64,000 bases of DNA from an uncultured Anaerotruncus sp. (GTDB lineage Bacteria; Bacillota; Clostridia; Oscillospirales; CAG-272): positions 1,910 through 65,909 of the forward strand of contig CAJLZE010000001.1 in assembly GCA_905210995.1 (NCBI GenBank), in the 5' to 3' direction. The notes beneath the pieces were generated by a model. That model saw only the letters and a list, made by a program, of their open reading frames with translations, had not been told where the DNA came from and did no database searches. The position numbers and the translations under genes were made by a program. Below are positions 17,594-60,096 of the stretch, one piece after another. Numbering within the stretch: the stretch's first letter is position 1; each line of letters starts with the position of its first letter.

Positions 17594-18049
17594 TCATTTA
17601 TCTTCCATGCTTATGGCAATATCGGTATAGAGCTTGCCGTCAAGGTGATCTATCTCATGACAGAAGGCGCGTGCCAGCAGTCCCTCTCCGGTCATTTCGA
17701 ACGCTTTGCCGTCGCGTCCCGTGGCGCGCACGGTCACCTTCATCGGTCGGCGCACGATGCCCGATCTGCCGGGTATCGAAAGGCAGCCCTCGGGTCCCTC
17801 CTGCTCTCCCGCCTCGTAAATTATCTCGGGGTTTATGAGGAATATCGGGTGATCCTCCTCCACCTCGATAACGACCAGGCGGCGCAGCACGCCCACCTGC
17901 GGAGCCGCAAGCCCCACGCCGTCTGCCGCGCGCATTGTCTCGAGCATATCATCGAGCAGTTGCTGGATGCGCGGTGTAACTCTTTCTACCGGGCGGCTCG
18001 TCTGCCGCAGTGTCGGATCCTTATCCGTAATTATTTTTCTCTTAGCCAT
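17594..18049 (-). CDS. def: peptide deformylase
   Basis: GVGLAAPQVG, EGCLSIPG and HEIDHLDG motifs. Confidence 0.95.
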   Translation of the reverse strand: MAKRKIITDKDPTLRQTSRPVERVTPRIQQLLDDMLETMRAADGVGLAAPQVGVLRRLVVIEVEEDHPIFLINPEIIYEAGEQEGPEGCLSIPGRSGIVRRPMKVTVRATGRDGKAFEMTGEGLLARAFCHEIDHLDGKLYTDIAISMEDK

Positions 18050-18326
18050 ACAACTTATCCTTCTTTCTTTGATCTCGGGTGACGTTTGTGCAGACTCTGA
18101 GCTTCATACCCCGATGATGAAATAAGTACAGATTCATATCTGTTATGGAAATACAGTCACATCAAAACTTTATCACCGTATCCGTATGGGAGGGGCTCTG
18201 CTCCTCCCGCAAAGCATATGCAGACATCATTCACGGGAGTGGCGACCTCGGGCTTTGTCCGAGTTCATCCTCCACTACCGATACGGGAAAAATTTTGTTT
18301 CCGTCTGTTCCCGGCGGTGCGAGCCG
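18050..18326. repeat. intergenic repeat array (priA-def spacer)
   Basis: One full CTCGGGTG-N26-ACCCCGATGATGAA unit (18074-18121), a GGGAGGGGCTCTGCTCCTCCC hairpin (18188-18208), and the shared ACAGTCACATCA segment. The same modules occur at 43.1-43.4 kb and 59.3 kb. Confidence 0.75.
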
Positions 18327-20840
18327 TTATATATTCGTCGGGTTGAAATCGACCGACAGGACGGGCCCGCGCTTTGCCCTGTCCGAGAACTCCGCTCTCA
18401 GCCGGGCGAACATCGCGCGGCTCCTGCCGCACAGCCTGCACTTTATTATCATCCGTATGCGGTATTTGCCGTCCACACGGTAAACAGGCGCCTCGAACGG
18501 CCCGAAAACTATTGCGGGAACGTCACCAAACTCCCCGCCGGTAAGCTCGCGCAGCTTGTCCGACAGCAGCTTTCCCGACATTACCGCCGCCCTCTCGTCG
18601 GGCGAGGTAACGGTCAGCAGCACGATATCGCAGAACGGAGGAAACGTCAGCGCCCGCCGCAGCCTTATCTCGCGTGCGTAAAACGTGTCGTAATCCTGCC
18701 GGCAGGCAAGCTTTATTATATCGTGCTCGGGATTGTTCGTCTGTATTATCGCCTCGCCGGGCTTTTGCCCTCTGCCCGCTCTGCCGATGACCTGCGTGAG
18801 CATGGCGAACGTGCGCTCGCCCGCGCGGTAATCATCGAGATAAAGTGACATATCCGCCAGCAGCACGCCGACGAGCGTGACGTCGGGGAAGTCGTGCCCC
18901 TTTGTCACCATCTGCGTACCGAGCAGGATATCCCCCTCGTGCGCCCGGAATTTACCGAGCAATCTGTCGTATGCTTCGCGCGTGGACGTCGTGTCGGTGT
19001 CCATGCGTATGACGCGCACACCGGGGATCAGAAGCCCCAGCTCCTGCTCGACCCGCTGTGTGCCGTAGCCCATCCTCACAAGGTGCTCCGACCCGCAGTT
19101 AGGGCATTTTTCGGGCAGCGGCATATGCCTGCCGCACCAATGGCAGACAAGCTCGCCCGCGCCGTAATCGCCCTCGCGCGTGTGGTAGGTCATTGAGACC
19201 GAGCACCGCGGGCAGGTTATCGCCGTTCCGCACGACGCACAGGAGACAAAATTGTTGTACCCGCGGCGGTTCAGGAACAGTATCGACTGCTCGCCGCGCG
19301 AATACACCTCACACAGTCGTGAGGCAAGCTCGGTGCCGATGGGCGAAAGATTCGCACCGCGCGCCTCGCCGCGCATATCCGCGACCGTGACCGCGGGCAG
19401 CGCCGCGCCGCCGTAGCGGTGCGTGAGCCTTACGAGCGTATATGTGCCGTCGCACGCCTTTTTGAAGCTCTCGACCGACGGCGTTGCCGAGCAGAGCAGC
19501 ATGAGCGCCGAATTTGCGGCGCTGCGGTATCTTGCAATGTCGCGCGCGTGGTAGCGCGGCGACATATCGGACTTGTATGTGTGTTCCTGCTCCTCGTCGA
19601 TGACGATGAGCCCCGGGTCCTTCACCGGTGCGAATATCGCCGAGCGCGTGCCGACCGCAAGCGGTGCGGCGCCCGTGCGTATCCTCTCCCACGCGGCGTA
19701 TCTCTCGCTGCGCGAAAGCCCCGAATGCAGCACCGCGACCCTCTCGCCGTAACGCGAGCAGAATATAGCCAGCGACTGCGGCGTCAGCGCTATCTCGGGC
19801 AAAAGCAGGATGACCCCGCGCCCGCGCGACAGCATCAGATCGATAAGCGCCAGCATAACCGCGGTCTTGCCGCTGCCGGTCACGCCGTAAAGCAGTGCGC
19901 CGTGCGCCCGTCCGTCACCGGAAAGCTCCGCGAGCTTTTCAAAAGCCGCGCTCTGCTCGTCGTTAAGACGCACGGGCTCCGCGTTCGGCTTTTCGGGCAG
20001 GACCGTCTCCGACCGCGCCCTCTCCGCGTCGCGCATGACACGCCGCAGGACCCCCTTTTTCTCAAGGGACAATATCTGCGCGCGGCATTTGCCGAACTTT
20101 TCTTCAAGCTCAGTCTCGCGTATTCCGTCCCCGCACCCGATAAGCGACTCGGTTATCGCGACCTGTATCGCCGATGCGGGACGTTTTATGTCGGGGTGCC
20201 TTTTGTCGAGCACCGCACGCAACCCGTCGGGTGAGAGCACCGGCTCACAGTACATTTCGCCGCGCGCGTCACCGCCCGCGGTCTCAAGCTCGCGGATGAG
20301 CAGCGGCACTCTGCCGCCGCAAAGCGCGTCGGCAATGCCGGACGCCTGCGCGCCGAAGCGCGATGTCAGCGCCGCCGCCGAGACTCTGCCCCTGCCGCGG
20401 ACGTATTCAAGCACCATGAGCGCTGCGGGATCGTCGTTTTCGATATCTACGGCGGCTTCCGGCTCCGCATACGCGGGATTGGGAAGATAAAACTCGGTCA
20501 ACCGCGAAAGTGCGGCGGGCGGCAGCATTGCGCGCACCGCGTCGCCCGTCGTGCAGAGCGTCTGCTCTTTCATAAATCGGCAGAGCCCCAGCATTTCGGT
20601 ATCGAGCGACACCTCGCGCGAGCACACGCCCGCGACCGGCTTGAGCTTGTCCTCCGGTGTATCGGAGCTGTCGCGCACGGCGGTGCACAGTGCGATCATG
20701 CGGCGGTTGCCGCTGCCGAACGGAACGCTGAGAAAATCGCCCGGCGCGATCTCCATGCCCTCGGGTATCCGGTAATCGTATTCGCGGTCTATCTGAAAGG
20801 GCGCGTCAAGCAGATACACGCCGGCATACACAGAGTTCAT
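18327..20840 (-). CDS. priA: primosomal replication restart helicase PriA
   Basis: 837 aa with Walker A GVTGSGKT, DEEH, and the Cys-rich zinc insertion (CASCG...CPRC...CHWCG...CPNCG). Confidence 0.9.
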   Translation of the reverse strand: MNSVYAGVYLLDAPFQIDREYDYRIPEGMEIAPGDFLSVPFGSGNRRMIALCTAVRDSSDTPEDKLKPVAGVCSREVSLDTEMLGLCRFMKEQTLCTTGDAVRAMLPPAALSRLTEFYLPNPAYAEPEAAVDIENDDPAALMVLEYVRGRGRVSAAALTSRFGAQASGIADALCGGRVPLLIRELETAGGDARGEMYCEPVLSPDGLRAVLDKRHPDIKRPASAIQVAITESLIGCGDGIRETELEEKFGKCRAQILSLEKKGVLRRVMRDAERARSETVLPEKPNAEPVRLNDEQSAAFEKLAELSGDGRAHGALLYGVTGSGKTAVMLALIDLMLSRGRGVILLLPEIALTPQSLAIFCSRYGERVAVLHSGLSRSERYAAWERIRTGAAPLAVGTRSAIFAPVKDPGLIVIDEEQEHTYKSDMSPRYHARDIARYRSAANSALMLLCSATPSVESFKKACDGTYTLVRLTHRYGGAALPAVTVADMRGEARGANLSPIGTELASRLCEVYSRGEQSILFLNRRGYNNFVSCASCGTAITCPRCSVSMTYHTREGDYGAGELVCHWCGRHMPLPEKCPNCGSEHLVRMGYGTQRVEQELGLLIPGVRVIRMDTDTTSTREAYDRLLGKFRAHEGDILLGTQMVTKGHDFPDVTLVGVLLADMSLYLDDYRAGERTFAMLTQVIGRAGRGQKPGEAIIQTNNPEHDIIKLACRQDYDTFYAREIRLRRALTFPPFCDIVLLTVTSPDERAAVMSGKLLSDKLRELTGGEFGDVPAIVFGPFEAPVYRVDGKYRIRMIIKCRLCGRSRAMFARLRAEFSDRAKRGPVLSVDFNPTNI

Positions 20841-25987: not shown

Positions 25988-26041
25988 CGTCCCCCCGCCT
26001 TTGGAACCGGCGAGCCGCGGTGACACGGACCGGCATTTTTG

Positions 26042-26083
26042 AAGGGCTGTTAAAAACAAATTGTTTTTGACAGCCCTTTTTTT
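26042..26083 (+). terminator. rho-independent terminator after spoIIR
   Basis: AAGGGCTGTTAAAAAC-aaatt-GTTTTTGACAGCCCTT followed by a T7 run. Confidence 0.7.
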
Positions 26084-40948: not shown

Positions 40949-43060
40949 TCAGCCCTGGGCGTCTCTGATAGAGAAGTCCATTCTGCCCTTCTTGTCAAGT
41001 CCGATATACTTGACCTTTACGATATCGCCGAGCTTGAGGACATCCTCAACCTTGTCGATGCGGTGGTCGGTGATGCGGGAGATGTGAACCATGCCCTCCT
41101 TGCCGGGAGCATATTCAACGAAGCAGCCGAACTCCTTGATGCCGGTGACCTTGCCGGTGTAGACGGTGCCGACAACGGGCTCGAAGCAGATAGCGTCGAT
41201 CGTCGCCTTGGCGGCGTCTGCGGCGGCGCGGTTGACCGCGGCGATATATACCGTTCCGTCGTCCTCGATATCGATCTTGGCGCCGGTGTCGGCGGTGATC
41301 TTCTGAATGACGCAGCCGCCCTTGCCTATGACCTCGCGGATCTTATCGGGGTCGATCTTTATCGTCATCATCTTGGGAGCATACTCGGAGACATCGGCGC
41401 GCGGGGCGGGGATAGCCTTGAGAATGACCTCGTCGATGATATAATCGCGTCCGGCGTGGGTCATTTCGAGCGCCGACTTGATGATCTCGGGCGTCAGACC
41501 GTCGATCTTGAGGTCCATCTGGATGGACGTGATGCCATTATGAGTACCGGCGACCTTGAAGTCCATATCGCCGTAGAAGTCCTCGACGCCCTGGATATCA
41601 ATCATGGTCATCCACTTTTCGCCCTCGGTGATAAGACCGCAGGAGATACCCGCAACGGGAGCCTTGATCGGCACGCCCGCGTCCATAAGCGCGAGTGTGG
41701 AGCCGCAGACCGACGCCTGCGAGGTGGAACCGTTGGAGGAAACGACCTCGGAAACGAGGCGGATGGCGTAGGGGAACTCCTCGGTGGAGGGAAGCACGGG
41801 AACGAGCGAGCGCTCGGCAAGTGCTCCGTGACCTATCTCACGTCTGCCGGGGCTGCGGGTAGCCTTTGCCTCGCCGGTGGAGTAGCCGGGCATATTGTAG
41901 TGGTGCATATATCTCTTGGAATCCTCGTTGTCGATGCCGTCGAGCATCTGAGCCTCGGCGAGGGTCCCGAGCGTTGCCATTGTAACGACCTGTGTCTGAC
42001 CTCTCGTGAACATACCCGAGCCGTGCACTCTCTTGAAGAGTCCCACCTCGGCGGCAAGGGGTCTTATCTGGTTGAGGGCACGACCGTCAACGCGCTTGCC
42101 CTCAAGCAGCCAGCGACGGACGACCTTCTTCTGCATCTTATAGACCAGTTCGGGCATCTGGGTGGCGAGATCGGGATATTCCTCGCCGAATTTTTCGATG
42201 ATCGCGTCCTCGATCGGGAGCATTCTCTCGTCACGGACGTTCTTGTCGTCGGTATCGAGAGCGTTCATGAGATCCGCCTCGCAGAAGGCAAAGATCTTAT
42301 CGAACATATCGTGATCAAGCTCGCAGGAAGGATATTCGAATTTGGGCTTGCCTACCTCATCGATAATGCCGTTGACGAACACGAGCAGATCCTTGATCTC
42401 GGCATGAGCCTTCATGATAGCGTCGTACATAACATCGTCGGCAACTTCGTTGGCGCCCGCCTCGATCATGACCACCTTGTTCATCGACGCGGCAACGGTC
42501 AGCTCAAGGTCGCTCTTTTCTCTCTCTGCCTCTGTGGGATTGACGACGAGCTTGCCGTCAACAAGACCCATGAAAACGCCCGCGATCGGTCCGTTCCACG
42601 GAATATCCGATATCGACAGTGCGATGGAGGCGCCGAGCATAGCGGTGATCTCTGGAGAGCAGTCCTGATCGACCGACATAACGGTGAGTGTGAGTGCTAC
42701 GTCGTTGCGCAGATCCTTGGGGAAGAGGGGACGGATCGGGCGGTCGATGACGCGCGCGGTCAGTATTGCCTTTTCGCTGGGTTTGCCCTCGCGCTTGAGA
42801 TAACCGCCGGGGATCTTTCCCGCTGCGTACATTCTCTCCTCATAGTCAACAGACAGGGGGAGGAAGTCTATGCCGTCGCGGGGCTTTGCGGACGCGGTGG
42901 CGCAGCAAAGCACGGCGGTATCGCCGTAGCGGACGAGGCATGAGCCGTTTGCAAGGCCTGCCATTTTGCCGACCTCAACAGAAAGGGGTCTGCCCGCAAG
43001 AGTATAGCGGAAGATCTTCTGGTTCGGGAACTGCATGGGTGTGCTTTTGATTTCGTACAT
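40949..43060 (-). CDS. pnp: polyribonucleotide nucleotidyltransferase (PNPase)
   Basis: 703 aa with two RNase PH domains, then KH and S1 domains (GKVTGIKEFGCFVEY). GGAGGT SD. Confidence 0.95.
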   Translation of the reverse strand: MYEIKSTPMQFPNQKIFRYTLAGRPLSVEVGKMAGLANGSCLVRYGDTAVLCCATASAKPRDGIDFLPLSVDYEERMYAAGKIPGGYLKREGKPSEKAILTARVIDRPIRPLFPKDLRNDVALTLTVMSVDQDCSPEITAMLGASIALSISDIPWNGPIAGVFMGLVDGKLVVNPTEAEREKSDLELTVAASMNKVVMIEAGANEVADDVMYDAIMKAHAEIKDLLVFVNGIIDEVGKPKFEYPSCELDHDMFDKIFAFCEADLMNALDTDDKNVRDERMLPIEDAIIEKFGEEYPDLATQMPELVYKMQKKVVRRWLLEGKRVDGRALNQIRPLAAEVGLFKRVHGSGMFTRGQTQVVTMATLGTLAEAQMLDGIDNEDSKRYMHHYNMPGYSTGEAKATRSPGRREIGHGALAERSLVPVLPSTEEFPYAIRLVSEVVSSNGSTSQASVCGSTLALMDAGVPIKAPVAGISCGLITEGEKWMTMIDIQGVEDFYGDMDFKVAGTHNGITSIQMDLKIDGLTPEIIKSALEMTHAGRDYIIDEVILKAIPAPRADVSEYAPKMMTIKIDPDKIREVIGKGGCVIQKITADTGAKIDIEDDGTVYIAAVNRAAADAAKATIDAICFEPVVGTVYTGKVTGIKEFGCFVEYAPGKEGMVHISRITDHRIDKVEDVLKLGDIVKVKYIGLDKKGRMDFSIRDAQG

Positions 43061-43721
43061 TTTGTACCTCCGTATATTTTGCTCCCGACATGGTTAGCAC
43101 TTAACCGCGCGTCTCCCGGTCGTGATGAACGCAAGGCGCACGGTTAAATGCTGCCCACATGCGGGATTTTTTTAAGTCTCGGGTGGCGTTTATGCAGAGT
43201 TGTAACTGCACACCCCGACGGTGAAACAAGTGCGAACTCGTATCGACCGCACGGGTACAGTCACATCAGAACATAACCGACTTTTTAAGTCTCGGGTGGC
43301 GTTTATGCAGAGTTGCAGCCGCGTACCCCGACGGTGAAGCAAGTACAGACTCGTATCTGCCGCATCCCGTAGGGGAGGGGCTCTGCTCCTCCCGCAAAGC
43401 TTGCGCAAACTTCGGTCCCGGAAGGCAGCCACGCATTTTTAAGGTTTGTGCCGTGCGCGGTTAAACGCGGCGGGGAAATCAAACACACGGTACTGATGCA
43501 ACTCCACTCCCCGCCTATCATCGAGGTATAAAGCTCAAAATCCGATCCGGCTTCGCCCGGGTCCGAAAGCCCGATATAAATCAGCGCTTCCTTCATCATC
43601 GGGGTATAAAGCTCAAAATCCGATCCGGCTTCGCCCGAGTCCGAAAGCCCGATATAAATCAGCGCTCCCTTCATCATCGGGGTATGAAGTTCAAGATCCG
43701 ATCTGACTTCACCCGAGTCCG
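43061..43721. repeat. repeat-filled rpsO-pnp spacer
   Basis: Two direct units 113 bp apart (43174 and 43287), each with CTCGGGTG-N26-ACCCCGACGGTGAA. Three tandem 78-bp units of the same family in the opposite orientation lie at about 43510-43745. There is also a GGGAGGGGCTCTGCTCCTCCC hairpin (43373-43393) and CGCGCGGTTAA-type inverted repeats (43099-43145 and about 43455-43470). Confidence 0.8.
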
Positions 43722-43755
43722 AAAAAAGGGATGCCGTGCAAAAACGCGGCATCCC
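43722..43755 (-). terminator. rho-independent terminator of rpsO
   Basis: On the minus strand: GGGATGCCGCG-ttttt-GCACGGCATCCC followed by T6. Confidence 0.75.
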
Positions 43756-43776
43756 AGTCTCCATCGCCCTTGCTTT

Positions 43777-44040
43777 TTACTTTCTGATGTTCAGCTTGGC
43801 TATGATAGCGCGGTATCTTTCGATATCGACCTTCATCAGATAGTTGAGCAGATTTCTTCTGTGACCGACCATTTTAAGAAGACCGCGGCGGCTGTGATGG
43901 TCGTTGTTGTTCTTCTTAAGATGCTCGGTAAGGGAGTTGATCCTGCTGGTAAGGAGAGCGATCTGAACCTCGGGCGAACCTGTGTCGCCTTCGTGTACAG
44001 CGTACTCTTCGATGATCGCGAGTTTTTCTTCTTTGGTCAT
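43777..44040 (-). CDS. rpsO: 30S ribosomal protein S15
   Basis: [13 protein letters not shown]...[22 protein letters not shown]...[19 protein letters not shown]. The ATG at 44040 lies 6 nt after GAGGTG. Confidence 0.95.
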
Positions 44041-44166
44041 TTCATTCACCTCATGTTTTTTTGCGCGGACTCAGCGACCGGCGGGTGAATAACCTTGCGG
44101 TCTTTTATCCGGAGACCGGGTCTGCGTCATTTTTTACGGCATGAAACATCACACCGATACAGTGTT

Positions 44167-44195
44167 ATTATACCACACTTCCGCGCGTTTGTAAA
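44167..44195 (-). promoter_or_regulatory. sigma-A type promoter (extended -10) for rpsO
   Basis: On the minus strand: TTTACA, 17 nt, TGgTATAAT. This leaves a leader of about 120 nt. Confidence 0.6.
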
Positions 44196-44241
44196 TAGCC
44201 GTGAATGGGATTATTTTTGAATATTTATTGAAATGATCTTC

Positions 44242-44919
44242 TCAGACACCGGCGGCACGTGCGGCGGCGCGCTGCAAAAGCTCCGCATCGTCAGCGGGAA
44301 GCCCCGCGGTGTATTCGTTGCCGACAGGCGACGCACCGAAGAGCGTTGCAAAATGCACGCACGCGGCAAGATACGAGCCGGCGGGAGACGGGTGCGTCAT
44401 GTCGGCGTTATAGAGCTCGATCCCCGCGGCATTTTCGTATACATCGAGAAACGCACATCCGACGTGCGACACCGCACAGCCGAGCGCCGCTCCCGCCGCA
44501 TCATATGCGGAATGAAGGAGCGCGTGCATCGCCGCAGTCGTCCACCCGTGTTCGGCGAGCGTGTCGTTTCCCGCTTTGCGCCCCCACGTCTCGTAAAGCA
44601 CCGGCACCGCCTGCGGCTGATATTCCTTCAGCTTTTCGGTGATTGCACGCAGTCCCTCCGCAAAGCGTTCGGGCTCCGCCGCGGGAAGGACCGACTGCTC
44701 CTGAAGTATCACACGGTCGTATTTCATGTCTCCCGAAAGCGCCGCCGTCACCCGCCTGCCGTTTTCGTTATCATCCGATGCGAGCCTTGCGAGCGTGTAA
44801 CCGCCCTTTGTGACCGACGCGACCTCCGCATAAAAGCCTGCGGCGCGCGCAAGGCTTTCAAGCATTTTCGGCATGTCGTTGTAATATGTGTAGCTGTTTC
44901 CGATAAAAAGAATGTTCAT
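44242..44919 (-). CDS. SGNH/GDSL-like hydrolase (DUF4886-like)
   Basis: MNILFIGNSYTYYNDMP start (ATG at 44919, AAGGAGAA SD) and a later DMTHPSPAGSY motif. Confidence 0.65.
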   Translation of the reverse strand: MNILFIGNSYTYYNDMPKMLESLARAAGFYAEVASVTKGGYTLARLASDDNENGRRVTAALSGDMKYDRVILQEQSVLPAAEPERFAEGLRAITEKLKEYQPQAVPVLYETWGRKAGNDTLAEHGWTTAAMHALLHSAYDAAGAALGCAVSHVGCAFLDVYENAAGIELYNADMTHPSPAGSYLAACVHFATLFGASPVGNEYTAGLPADDAELLQRAAARAAGV

Positions 44920-45040
44920 AAGCCCTGTTCTCCTTTTTTCCAAACCGTTTTGCCGCCAATAAAATCAAAAACATAACGTCCGGGAGCAAGACCGGCCGGG
45001 ACGGCATCAAAAACGCCGGGATCCGTGCCGGTATTTTTAA

Positions 45041-45075
45041 GGGGCTGTTAAAAACGCAAGGTTTTTAACAGCCCC
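45041..45075. terminator. hairpin downstream of tmk (possible terminator)
   Basis: GGGGCTGTTAAAAAC-gcaag-GTTTTTAACAGCCCC, a perfect 15-bp stem with no clean U-run. Confidence 0.4.
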
Positions 45076-51104: not shown

Positions 51105-51591
51105 AACCCGCCGGGCGATCCGAACGGAAGGAAGGTCAATAATGTGCGGGCGGTCTTCGCCGGGCAAAGCCCGGGCGAAGACCGGGACCGCCATTCCCGA
51201 AAGTATAATTCGGTAAAGCAGGGGAGGGGTCAAGCCCCTCCCCTACGGCAACAATCATAAAAAAGCAAAATGCCGCACCGTTTAAAACGACGCAGATTTT
51301 GCGGAAGGAAAAACGCGGAAGTACATGAAACATAACAGCAGCAGCGGAGCGGGATCTCCGCTTTCTCCGTCATCGGAATATAACGCCAAAACACCGTTGG
51401 GGTATGAAGCCCCCAACCCGTCCAAGCTCTCCGGCAGCAGTAGTTCAGACTCTGATCTCACTCCGCCGTCGGGGTATGACGCTCAAAACCCGCTCAAACA
51501 TTCCGGCATCGGCAGTTCAGGTTCTCCACTCGCTCCACCGTCGGGGTATAAAGCTCAAGCTCCGCAAAAAACCCACCCGAGTTTTAAAAAG
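51105..51591. repeat. repeat-filled argG-argH spacer
   Basis: GGGGAGGGG-tcaag-CCCCTCCCC hairpin followed by TACGG (51220-51248), and at least three tandem units with a period of about 72-73 bp (anchors 51393, 51466, 51538) of the YCGTYGGGGTAT...CACCCGAG type. Confidence 0.8.
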
Positions 51592-52965
51592 ATGTGGGAG
51601 GGGAGAACGGCGGGAAAAACCGACCCCGCGGCGGACGATTTCAATTCGTCGATAAGGTTTGACAGCAAAATGTACCGCCAGGACGTCCTCGGCAGCATGG
51701 CGCATGCCGCAATGCTCGGCGCACAGGGGATAATCCCGACGGCGGACGCCGAAAAGCTCGCGGAAGGGCTGGAGGGGATACTCAACGACCTCGACGCGGG
51801 AAAGCTTGAATTCGATCCCGCGGCGGAGGATATACATATGTTCGTCGAAACGGTGCTCACGGAGCGCATCGGCGACGTGGGTAAAAAGCTGCATACCGCA
51901 CGGAGCCGAAACGACCAGGTCGCACTTGACACGCGGATGTACCTGCGCGACGAGAGCGCGGATATCACAGCGCTTGTGCTCAGCCTTGTCGAAACGCTCT
52001 GCACCCGCGCAGCCGAAAACCGCGCAACGATAATGCCCGGATATACGCATATGCAGCGCGCACAGCCGGTGACGTTCGGACATCACCTGATGGCATACGC
52101 AATGATGCTTTTGCGCGACCTCGGCAGACTCGACGATTGCCGGAAGAGAATGAACGTGTCGCCGATAGGCTGCTGCGCGCTTGCGGGGACGACATACCCC
52201 GTTGACCGCCGCGCGGAGGCTGCATCTCTCGGCTTTGACGGTATCGCCATGAACAGTCTCGACGGCGTATCCGACCGCGACTATTGCGTTGAGCTCGCGT
52301 CGGCGATCTCGCTTATAATGATGCACCTCTCAAGGCTCTCGGAGGAGCTGGTACTGTGGTCAAGCTGGGAGTTCGGCTTTGTCGAGCTGTCCGACGCGTA
52401 CACGACAGGCTCGTCGATAATGCCGCAAAAGAAGAATCCCGACATGGCGGAGCTTATACGCGGCAAGACCGGACGCGTTTTCGGCGACCTTATGGCGCTG
52501 CTGACCGTCCTCAAGGGGCTCCCTCTCGCATATAACAAGGATATGCAGGAGGATAAGGAAAATATCTTTGACGCGACCGAAACGGTGAAGGCGTGCCTGC
52601 CCGTTATGGATTCCATGATCGCCACGATGACGGTGAAGCCCGACGCGATGAAGCGCGCCGCGCAAAAGGGATTTATCAACGCGACGGACCTTGCCGACTA
52701 CCTCACAAAGAAAGGCCTGCCCTTCCGTGCGGCATATAAGCTGTCGGGCGAGCTTGTGGCACGCTGCCTGAAGGAGGGAAAGGTGCTCGAGGAGCTGCCG
52801 CTTGAGGTCTACCGCGAGTACAGCGAGCTGTTTGACGGCGACCTTTATGCCGCCATCGACCTCGACGCCTGCGTCGCAAAGCGCGCGTCCGAGGGGGGAA
52901 CATCGCCCGAATCGGTGGACGCACAGATAAAATACGTAAAGGAAACGCTCGCGGCGCTGAAATGA
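51592..52965 (+). CDS. argH: argininosuccinate lyase
   Basis: MWEGRTAG...SIRFD...GSMAHAAML and the fumarate-lyase signature GSSIMPQKKNPD. The start at 51592 is chosen by homology. The 89 upstream in-frame codons are repeat sequence. Confidence 0.9.
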   Translation: MWEGRTAGKTDPAADDFNSSIRFDSKMYRQDVLGSMAHAAMLGAQGIIPTADAEKLAEGLEGILNDLDAGKLEFDPAAEDIHMFVETVLTERIGDVGKKLHTARSRNDQVALDTRMYLRDESADITALVLSLVETLCTRAAENRATIMPGYTHMQRAQPVTFGHHLMAYAMMLLRDLGRLDDCRKRMNVSPIGCCALAGTTYPVDRRAEAASLGFDGIAMNSLDGVSDRDYCVELASAISLIMMHLSRLSEELVLWSSWEFGFVELSDAYTTGSSIMPQKKNPDMAELIRGKTGRVFGDLMALLTVLKGLPLAYNKDMQEDKENIFDATETVKACLPVMDSMIATMTVKPDAMKRAAQKGFINATDLADYLTKKGLPFRAAYKLSGELVARCLKEGKVLEELPLEVYREYSELFDGDLYAAIDLDACVAKRASEGGTSPESVDAQIKYVKETLAALK

Positions 52966-59177: not shown

Positions 59178-60096
59178 TTATTTTGCGTATACACATACGG
59201 ACTTTTTTGACCGACATAGCGACGCCAAACACACGCAGCCATAAATCGCACCACCCGCAATCAAGACTTGATAATGTATGGTAAGGTGAGCGCGGGTGAA
59301 ACCCGGGGTCGCTTCTCCCGTGAAACGAGTACAGATTTCATTCACTATAATAAGTAGGGGAGGGGCTCTGCTCCTCCCGATAAAATTTGAACAAACTCCA
59401 ACGGCGGGAGGGGTAAACCCCTCCCCTACGGCAGTACCCATGTAGTATGTTTAAAGTCTGAAACCTTGCCAAGGCTCCCTCCTGAGGGAGCTGTCGCCGA
59501 AGGCGACTGAGGGAGTAAAATTCATTAAAATAAAAGGAAGATCCCGCTGCGGCGGGATCTTTTTTACCACCTCATCCGCCGCGCTCGCGGGATTGAATTT
59601 TTTAGTTTTTACGCAATGCGTAAAAACATAGCGCGGCAATGATCGATGTTTCCTGCACGCCTTTATCCCGCGCCGCAGCACCTTCCCAAACTTGGGAAGG
59701 CTCACAGAACCGTATCTTCCGTCGATCACGGTGAAGAAAGCAAAACGATCCTGTTTTTGATTTTGCCGGCTTACTGAAGTTCATTTCTCACTTTACATCC
59801 GTTGACGGAACGTCATTTAACGGCAGCCTTCCCGTGTCCGGGAAGGTGGTGCCGTAGGCGCCGGATGAGGAGGACAAGAGGTTTTGCCACAGGCAAAACC
59901 TACCGAATCAATGTAGGGGAGTGGCAAGCCCCTCCCGTACGGCAGTACCCATGTAGTAGATTTAAAGTCTGAAGCCTTGCCAAGGCTCCCTCAAGAGGGG
60001 GCTGTCGCCGCAGGCGGCTGAGCGAGTAAAATCGAAGCACTGGAGAGCGGCAGTGAAGCTTAATACGACTCCGGCTTTTCGGTATTTTCATCATTT
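59178..60096. repeat. 0.9-kb composite intergenic repeat array
   Basis: A direct repeat of about 120 bp (59406-59525 and 59914-60034, which I estimate at close to 90% identical). GGGAGGGG hairpins at 59358-59378, 59406-59425 and about 59914-59936. Double-hairpin SD-like elements at 59464-59517, 59826-59875 and 59975-60028. Further perfect hairpins at 59546-59573, 59605-59628, 59681-59703 and 59881-59900. Confidence 0.75.

Follow-up and report, generated by a model that had tools for sequence, protein, structure and literature searches.

Organization of the rpsO-pnp Locus

In this study, we analyzed the intergenic spacer between rpsO and pnp in a 64,000-nt stretch of DNA (hereafter, the window) from an uncultured Anaerotruncus sp. 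Both genes lie on the minus strand: rpsO, encoding ribosomal protein S15, was called at 43777..44049 (PF00312), and pnp, encoding polynucleotide phosphorylase (PNPase), at 40949..43060 (RNase_PH, PNPase, KH_1 and S1 domains), leaving a spacer of 716 bp (43061..43776). An earlier interpretation made from the letters alone (hereafter, the sequence-only reading) had proposed that the spacer was expanded to this length by opposing arrays of one repeat family, and both the gene boundaries and the repeat searches agree with that proposal. For comparison, we used 80 relative loci from a PNPase-based scan, with one genome per species and 75-95% PNPase identity (L001-L080; L-numbers denote the loci compared). 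The loci are from uncultured gut metagenome-assembled genomes with the labels Oscillospiraceae, Eubacteriales or Clostridia; where rpsO is included (77 loci), the spacers measure 157-435 nt, with a median of 198 nt.

Along the transcript, the spacer opens with the intrinsic terminator of rpsO (43722..43755, minus strand), which had been recognized in the sequence-only reading: a 9-bp GC-rich hairpin (stem 43728-43736/43747-43755) is followed by a U6 tract (43722-43727) that coincides, on the opposite strand, with the A-rich 3' end of tandem unit t3. An automated terminator scan overlooked this structure, because its loop exceeds 8 nt. The terminator is followed by three tandem 78-bp units, t1-t3 (43492..43728), which are on the plus strand, i.e., antisense to the operon, and were found by repeat search, Tandem Repeats Finder (TRF) and profile search. 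Then come a non-repeated middle segment of ~70 nt (43425..43491, minus strand); a GTAG-headed palindrome, GTAGGGGAGGGGCTCTGCTCCTCCC (43369-43393), which together with ~30 nt of shared flank makes up an element at 43369..43424 (plus strand); and two further units, u2 (43281..43361) and u1 (43167..43249), which are on the minus strand (forward on the transcript strand) and were delimited by repeat search, unit alignment and profile search. A conserved hairpin of the pnp leader (82 nt, 43084..43165, minus strand), defined by folding, alignment and a covariance model, is separated by an A/U-rich stretch from the pnp Shine-Dalgarno (SD) sequence GGAGG (43067..43071, minus strand), 6 nt before the ATG.

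Only one strong sigma-70-like site was seen near the operon, the promoter-like site of rpsO (44167..44195, minus strand; TTTACA, 17 nt, TATAAT, with TG; 11/12 matches). No sigma-70-like site reaches the scan threshold on either strand of the spacer, and promoters inside the units were rejected on this ground. Among 78 spacers, the window's included, only eight have a sense-strand site of this kind, and in five of these it is located past the hairpin, no more than 20 nt from the ATG; many relatives have the terminator U-tract and then, almost immediately, the hairpin. A pnp promoter immediately upstream of 43100, which the sequence-only reading had named as the finding that would leave the arrays untranscribed, was seen neither in this spacer nor, in most relatives, upstream of the hairpin. 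Because no promoter-like site separates rpsO from pnp, read-through of the rpsO terminator is expected, with the repeats lying within the pnp 5' leader. Judging from these consensus scans, the repeats are probably co-transcribed with pnp, and in this clade transcription that starts at the rpsO promoter and reads through into pnp is the most likely source of pnp expression.

A Conserved Hairpin in the pnp Leader

Across the loci, the last 125 nt before pnp share a common layout: the first half of an outer stem, (GGA)UUAGCAGUUAA, a variable stem-loop, UUAAGUGCUAAACC, and the second half of the outer stem. The hairpin thereby formed comprises the outer stem, two boxes (UUAGCA/UGCUAA and UUAA/UUAA) and an apical stem that varies; the conserved boxes, UUAGCAGUUAA / UUAAGUGCUAAAC, are a peculiarity of this clostridial clade. 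In the window, the full helix spans 43084-43165, and its inner arms (43101-43111 and 43137-43147) are about 2 nt away from where the sequence-only reading had placed its SD-proximal hairpin.

In an alignment of 48 sequences, RNAalifold found 19 pairs, of which 12 show compensatory changes, and pair counting scored 93.8% of cells as paired. The covariation score was 0.482, compared to 0.146 for shuffles (none of 500 reached the observed value) and no more than 0.12 for slid controls. Compensated stem changes distinguish the window, L001 and L104 (CCG/CGG, UCG/CGA, CUG/CAG); the covariation of the outer helix, which RNAalifold did not capture, is visible by eye. A covariance model (R1) built from this alignment yielded one match per locus, just upstream of pnp, in ~69 of the 80 relatives, and the sense strand outscored the antisense strand at all loci but L020, as G-U pairs would lead one to expect. 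Over the 64 kb of the window, the model has a single match, at 43076-43169 (minus strand; 48.1 bits, E = 1.4e-9). Searches of Rfam 15 with the whole window (gathering threshold) and with 42900-44250 (E up to 10) gave noise only; among the matches there was no Actino-pnp (RF01688), no S15 leader and no other known RNA family, and the motif is apparently not yet catalogued. Conservation and covariation indicate that the hairpin is an old, selected structure of the pnp leader, unrelated to the repeat family.

It should be noted that the base of the hairpin (alignment columns 25-35 with 80-90) is near-invariant in sequence, UUAGCA-G-UUAA / UUAA-G-UGCUAA, with a conserved G-G mismatch that is replaced by U-G in the window's lineage. 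Such sequence conservation within a helix suggests that the base may be a protein recognition site.

The sequence-only reading had also noted that an arm of this hairpin recurs at about 43455-43470. This holds for the sequence: an exact 10-mer, GCGCGGTTAA, is present at 43101-43110 (minus strand) and, within the middle segment, at 43455-43464 (plus strand), these being its only exact copies in the 64 kb, and with one mismatch at 43138-43147; the copy at 43455-43464 could pair with the 3' arm of the hairpin. It does not hold for the structure, however. A second, degenerate leader hairpin was rejected, as the window holds a single match to the covariance model. The 43455-43464 stretch is also missing from L083 and L112, strains in which a 177-nt deletion has removed most of the middle segment.

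RNase III is known to cleave a hairpin between rpsO and pnp in Escherichia coli and in Streptomyces coelicolor (PMC10126417), and the Actino-pnp motif (RF01688) is a known pnp-leader analogue (PMC2864571). Similarly to these, the clostridial structure is a long hairpin that lies past the rpsO terminator in the 5' leader of pnp, is conserved clade-wide with covariation, and is followed by an A/U-rich stretch and the SD sequence. Unlike in E. coli and Streptomyces, where the spacer contains pnp promoters, none is evident in the present spacer, and the window has no match to the RF01688 model, even at E up to 10. By analogy, the hairpin probably corresponds to the one on which RNase III and PNPase act in E. 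coli and Streptomyces (Actino-pnp), and it allows RNase III/PNPase autoregulation, known from Proteobacteria and Actinobacteria, to be tested in Clostridia.

A Family of Interspersed Repeats

The three tandem units in one orientation, as described in the sequence-only reading, were recovered by two methods: TRF reported an array at 43517-43724 (period 78, 2.7 copies, 93% matches), and the repeat search placed unit starts at 43517, 43595 and 43673, with the third unit extending into the rpsO terminator. The two units of opposite orientation were likewise recovered, at 43169-43251 and 43282-43364 by repeat search (87% identity, 113 bp apart), and unit alignment and nhmmer (E of 1e-15 to 1e-20) place the u and t units in one family. 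Units have conserved ends (CAYCRTCGGGGTAT ... CACCCGAG and an A-run) and a variable core, with the consensus ...GATAYGAGTCTGTACTTNYTTCAC-CRTCGGGGTATRAAGCTCAAAA-(variable)-CACCCGAG-NNNN-AAAAA. The core 20-mer of the family has six matches in the window, compared to 0.00 expected, and in total there are 9-10 units at four loci of the window.

A further copy of the family (18064..18142, minus strand) is located directly upstream of the SD sequence of a gene that was read by eye as def (peptide deformylase), and a tandem array of 72-bp units of the same family (51392..51592, plus strand) immediately precedes, in the same reading frame, the start of a gene taken by eye for argH. The surroundings of the def-like gene (17594..18049) mirror the layout at pnp, i.e., a GTAG palindrome, then a unit, then the SD sequence (18040-18215, minus strand); the preceding gene is on the same strand and ends at 18327, and here again the repeats lie between co-oriented genes. 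A degenerate unit-like stretch was seen at 59290-59345.

The only pairing common to 13 distinct units is an invariant 5-bp stem, UCGGG/CCCGA, with no covarying pairs. Because this shared stem shows no compensatory change, the family appears to be kept as a sequence rather than as an RNA structure. At the DNA level, the 5-bp inverted repeat TCGGG/CCCGA bounds the unit core, and clear element ends or duplications did not emerge from the available copies. A CRISPR interpretation, prompted by the period of 72-78 bp, was rejected: the "spacers" of adjacent units are 96% identical, and single copies occur at other sites. The units were also rejected as intrinsic terminators, the stem being without a T-run in either orientation.

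Scanning metagenome contigs by exact match to a 19-mer of the unit core gave 13 stretches, nine of which are true family members. Four of the nine are the argH-like, def-like and rpsO-pnp loci of the same species again, and the other five, with six units, are new loci (L091, L095 with two units, L097, L098 and L103). For four of the units (L091, the first of L095, L097 and L098), a convergent gene has its stop codon 0-10 nt from the A-rich end; the other L095 unit is 128 nt downstream of the nearest stop codon, and the L103 unit is just upstream of a TTGACA-17-TATTAT promoter. Ahead of a complete unit in L103 (1427-1713), copies of the 5' module alone (GTAGATAWGAGTCTGTACT...) recur at intervals of ~69 nt; this repetition of a module on its own suggests that the family is modular, with different sub-units amplified at different loci. 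Scanning of viral contigs for the repeat core gave no matches and thus no sign of a phage origin. In the 80 relatives' loci, blastn-short found no match to the units, and nhmmer added L001 only; no family unit was found by nhmmer in L002-L080.

The hairpin GGGAGGGG at 43373-43393, pointed out in the sequence-only reading, was located as described, with a GTAG head at 43369; this palindrome has seven matches at six intergenic sites of the window, compared to 0.01 expected. The element at 43369..43424 is 83% identical to 18182-18239, and GTAG palindromes accompany the repeat units at all three loci, i.e., rpsO-pnp, the def-like gene (18184-18208) and the argH-like gene (51218-51246). One inverted doublet was found (59354-59378, plus strand, and 59405-59429, minus strand); the remaining copies are single. 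The doublet belongs to a cluster at 59270-60040, in which another copy of the palindrome is found at 59916-59940 and ~400 nt without a long open reading frame (ORF) are flanked by a 116-nt direct repeat (59406-59521/59917-60032, 89% identical). In L001, the GTAG head is kept with a different palindrome, GGGCGAA...TTCGCCC.

REP, BIME and REPIN elements are GTAG-headed palindromes mobilised by RAYT transposases, and REPs have been described mainly in Proteobacteria. GTAGGGGAGGGGCTCTGCTCCTCCC and its variants combine a REP-type head (GT[AG]G) with an imperfect palindrome in the REP size range of about 20-35 nt, and the GGGAGGGG element resembles REP/BIME/REPIN sequences in its GTAG head, its palindrome with a 9-bp stem and its one inverted doublet; similarly to BIMEs, the GTAG palindromes form mosaics with other repeat motifs. 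To our knowledge, BOX/REP-like systems are little described in gut Clostridia, to which the repeat family and the GTAG palindromes add such a system.

Variation of the Spacer among Relatives and Strains

The comparison across relatives that the sequence-only reading had proposed revealed that both length and content of the spacer differ, whereas the hairpin is kept. The window's repeats were found in none of the 77 relatives' spacers. The blastn alignments with the relatives cover rpsO together with its 5' leader and the final ~50-150 nt leading up to and into pnp, and the interior of the window's spacer is unmatched, with the exception of L001. This locus, from the nearest species in the reference collection (95% PNPase identity), has at least 1155 bp upstream of pnp without rpsO and has in common with the window only u1 and the leader hairpin. 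Its upstream region (L001:1-1155) is crowded with other repeats, namely, ~90-nt direct repeats, GTAG-GGGCGAA palindromes and "gttcggcgcgaacac" units. In a second sister lineage (L104-L109), whose PNPase falls into the same 90% cluster, the spacers measure 466, 595 and 665 nt; u1 and the hairpin are present in them, the tandem array is absent and the inserts are different. Because u1 is found in both sister lineages, at the same position as in the window, it appears to be the oldest insertion; u2, the palindrome and the tandem array would be specific to the window's species and later than u1. The rpsO-pnp spacer is a recurrent site of insertion and deletion across the whole clade.

The exact PNPase protein is indexed in 581 blocks of an assembly collection, and the samples returned include human-gut metagenome assemblies; thus, it comes from a common gut organism. 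Ten loci with identical PNPase have spacers of 794 nt (four t units), 716 nt (three), 560 nt (one) and 539 nt (one), the last of these combining a single t unit with the 177-nt deletion of the unique middle segment. Six loci with a near-identical PNPase allele (same 90% cluster) add a spacer of 638 nt with two t units. The terminator, the leader hairpin and the SD sequence are invariant in the same-species strains compared, and single-nucleotide polymorphisms concentrate in the units. Presumably, the array grows and shrinks in 78-bp steps by slipped-strand or unequal recombination. Its copy number (1-4 units) could be a handy marker for telling apart strains of this prevalent, uncultured gut species.

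Open Reading Frames on the Repeats

Gene callers annotate an ORF on the transcript strand of the spacer, of 90, 97, 123, 149 or 175 aa, and its length follows the array. Such calls, which we regard as spurious, are present in L081-L090 and L110-L115 and extend from ~25 nt after rpsO to ~240 nt before pnp. If genuine, the array would encode a small repeat protein of 90-175 aa, with 26-aa repeats (SDSGEAGSDFELYTPMMKEALIYIGL), between rpsO and pnp. The frame is open in all 17 same-species sequences examined, including those with the 177-nt deletion, which is in frame, and a GGAG is found 6 nt before the ATG. However, the start codon is located within the stem of the rpsO terminator, and the ORF crosses three unrelated repeat types. 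In the sister lineage, a stop follows after 14 codons and there is no equivalent gene call (an 81-aa ORF in L109 is unrelated), and other frames of the array are open too, on both strands, as in pneumococcal BOX elements (PMC3049150). Coding was rejected, for this ORF and for the extension of the argH-like gene described below, on the lack of Pfam matches and on the count of polymorphisms in the spacer ORF, seven synonymous versus 23 non-synonymous, which is near the neutral expectation. A real repeat protein is thus highly improbable, and the ORF is almost certainly not a gene. The array is a recurrent, systematic source of 90-175-aa mis-annotations in public assemblies of this species.

Similar frames were observed at the other two loci. 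The argH-like ORF (51325..52965, plus strand) has an 89-codon in-frame N-terminal extension that consists entirely of 72-bp units (PPSGY[DK]AQ.P-type repeats), and the conserved ArgH N-terminus (MWEGR...) begins at the ATG at 51592, without an obvious SD sequence; the extension is probably an artefact of a repeat that is open in that frame. A 31-codon upstream ORF crosses the unit at 18064-18142 and stops 4 nt into the def-like gene.

Origin and Possible Roles of the Spacer Repeats

The comparative data suggest that the spacer is probably an ancestral core to which lineage-specific, tolerated BOX/REP/MITE-like repeats have been added, and that these are not a required regulator, with pnp being controlled through the hairpin. 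The ancestral spacer would have been ~200 nt long, with the rpsO terminator, the conserved leader hairpin, the A/U-rich stretch and the SD sequence. About 500 nt of lineage-specific interspersed repeats would then have gathered between the terminator and the hairpin, u1 arriving first and u2, the palindrome and the antisense tandem array afterwards, and the t array would have varied in 78-bp steps since. With pnp transcribed by read-through from rpsO, the repeats would be carried in its 5' leader, and specific control would most likely be exerted via the hairpin, by RNase III cleavage followed by PNPase-dependent decay, if the analogy to E. coli and Streptomyces holds. By their distribution, the arrays are most readily understood as selfish or neutral interspersed repeats of a new BOX/REP/MITE-like family that occupy a tolerant spacer: dispersed intergenic copies occur far above chance (four loci in the window and about five in metagenome contigs), the taxonomic range is narrow, and the copy number is polymorphic at orthologous sites. 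The sequence-only reading had offered a tolerated landing pad as an alternative to regulation. For the arrays, this alternative is favoured by their absence from the 77 relatives, the variation between one and four units, the dispersed copies and the lack of covariation. The main value of the analysis is negative, in that a striking inverted-repeat spacer before a famously autoregulated gene seems to be mostly dispensable, strain-variable repeat DNA.

Several observations weigh against this interpretation. The unit in L103 is just upstream of a strong promoter, and units are consistently oriented beside gene starts (def-like, argH-like, pnp and L103), which could reflect function instead of an insertion bias. 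The mobility of the repeats is deduced from their distribution alone, because no transposase, RAYT or target-site duplication was identified, neither the genome having been searched for RAYT nor the window ORFs scanned for Y1_Tnp. The promoter scan used the sigma-70 consensus only, and a weak or alternative promoter in the repeats is possible. The opposing units are, moreover, predicted to pair. RNAduplex energies of t/u pairs are -53 to -74 kcal/mol, compared to approximately -35 to -45 kcal/mol for shuffles; for t3/u1, an imperfect duplex is predicted along the whole unit (-74 versus -35 +/- 5 kcal/mol), contrary to the sequence-only reading, in which pairing was confined to the conserved ends. 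The leader fold that this reading had called for has a minimum free energy (MFE) of -300.5 kcal/mol over 751 nt (z = -6.15) and uses long-range t-u pairs. Double-stranded RNA (dsRNA) formed by t and u units could therefore affect RNA processing in this model.

These predictions bear on the proposal, also raised in the sequence-only reading, that the arrays provide dsRNA for RNase III/PNPase-dependent control. In its full form, the proposal has RNase III cutting duplexes between antisense t and sense u units, so that pnp mRNA stability is set jointly by this cleavage and the hairpin. Apart from the folding energies, the proposal gains from the probable transcription of the arrays, there being no promoter between them and pnp, and from the co-transcribed Correia elements of Neisseria, which are reported to be bound and cut by RNase III (PMC2649163). 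However, t/u identity is 50-63%, with a longest perfect complementary run of 8 bp, the centroid fold differs from the MFE fold, whose reported ensemble frequency is 0, and each unit folds alone at about -26 kcal/mol with potential partners ~250-550 nt away, and thus local folding during transcription would be favoured. The t copy number varies from one to four among strains with the same or nearly the same PNPase, the 177-nt deletion is tolerated as well, and the arrays are absent both from the 77 relatives and from sister lineages that keep the hairpin. The part of the proposal that concerns the SD-proximal hairpin is supported by covariation; the part that concerns the variable arrays is not, and a dsRNA module of opposing arrays is unlikely. 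A modulatory effect of the arrays on pnp mRNA is possible but unsupported, and we consider it improbable. The same applies to a more far-reaching version, in which t and u units, carried by every pnp mRNA for want of a separate pnp promoter, pair into long imperfect dsRNA that is processed by RNase III and the number of units (1-4) is a heritable rheostat of PNPase dosage atop the ancestral autoregulatory hairpin; we doubt it, but if true, a strain-variable number of 78-nt units would set global RNA decay in a very common human-gut bacterium. The orientation of the units raises a different possibility, i.e., that they are cis-acting expression modules recruited beside genes, forward units acting as UP-element/promoter-proximal or 5' untranslated region stabilisers and reverse units after stop codons as 3'-end hairpins against 3'-5' exonucleases. 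Indeed, the A-rich CACCCGAG end faces the adjoining gene in most contexts examined: it is just before the SD sequence or ATG of the def-like and argH-like genes and ~110 nt before pnp, just before the TTGACA-17-TATTAT promoter in L103, 0-10 nt past convergent stop codons (L091, the first L095 copy, L097 and L098) and directly after the rpsO terminator. Yet, the second L095 copy is 128 nt from the nearest stop codon, the only stem shared by the units lacks covariation, and no T-run follows the unit hairpin in either orientation, so that it is not a terminator. The neighbouring genes are functionally unrelated, the copy number is polymorphic, and short intergenic regions alone would put any insert beside a gene. 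Recruitment as expression modules is, accordingly, a doubtful explanation, and tolerated interspersed repeats are the reading that we prefer.

By analogy, the closest described parallel to such repeats is the BOX element of Streptococcus pneumoniae. BOX elements have the structure boxA-boxB(n)-boxC, with RUP and SPRITE as related small repeats; they are co-transcribed as operon extensions, and one resides within a riboswitch leader without abolishing it (PMC3049150). Both families consist of short, modular intergenic repeats that are limited to one species and its closest relatives, with a variable number of tandem sub-units; both are found at the extreme 5' or 3' ends of genes, BOX often over the stop codon; and in both, large copies are open on both strands and mis-annotated as coding sequences (PMC3049150). 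The differences are that there is no sequence similarity, that A, B and C boxes have not been demonstrated here, that the host is a GC-rich member of Clostridia, and that co-transcription is here a prediction. Correia/NEMIS elements of Neisseria and ERIC are reported to be small, near-gene repeats that are co-transcribed, form long hairpins and can be RNase III substrates or carry promoters (PMC2649163, PMC10969869). The present repeats resemble them as small repeats near genes, with predicted co-transcription and hairpin folding. Each Correia/NEMIS/ERIC copy, however, is an element on its own, bounded by terminal inverted repeats and a duplicated TA target, of which no clear counterpart was identified here, and dsRNA in our case would need two separate opposing units.

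Additional Observations

Two further conserved or repeated stretches were seen near or outside the spacer. In blastn, ~80 nt of the rpsO 5' leader (44050-44132, minus strand) are conserved in many relatives, with alignments reaching 44132; this stretch has no Rfam match and is perhaps a leader, of a type not yet catalogued, through which S15 regulates its own synthesis. Two intergenic sites (26016-26076 and 45014-45074) share, at 77% identity, a 61-nt repeat that holds a long palindrome (GGGCTGTTAAAAAC...GTTTTTAACAGCCC) and looks like a shared bidirectional terminator or another repeat family.

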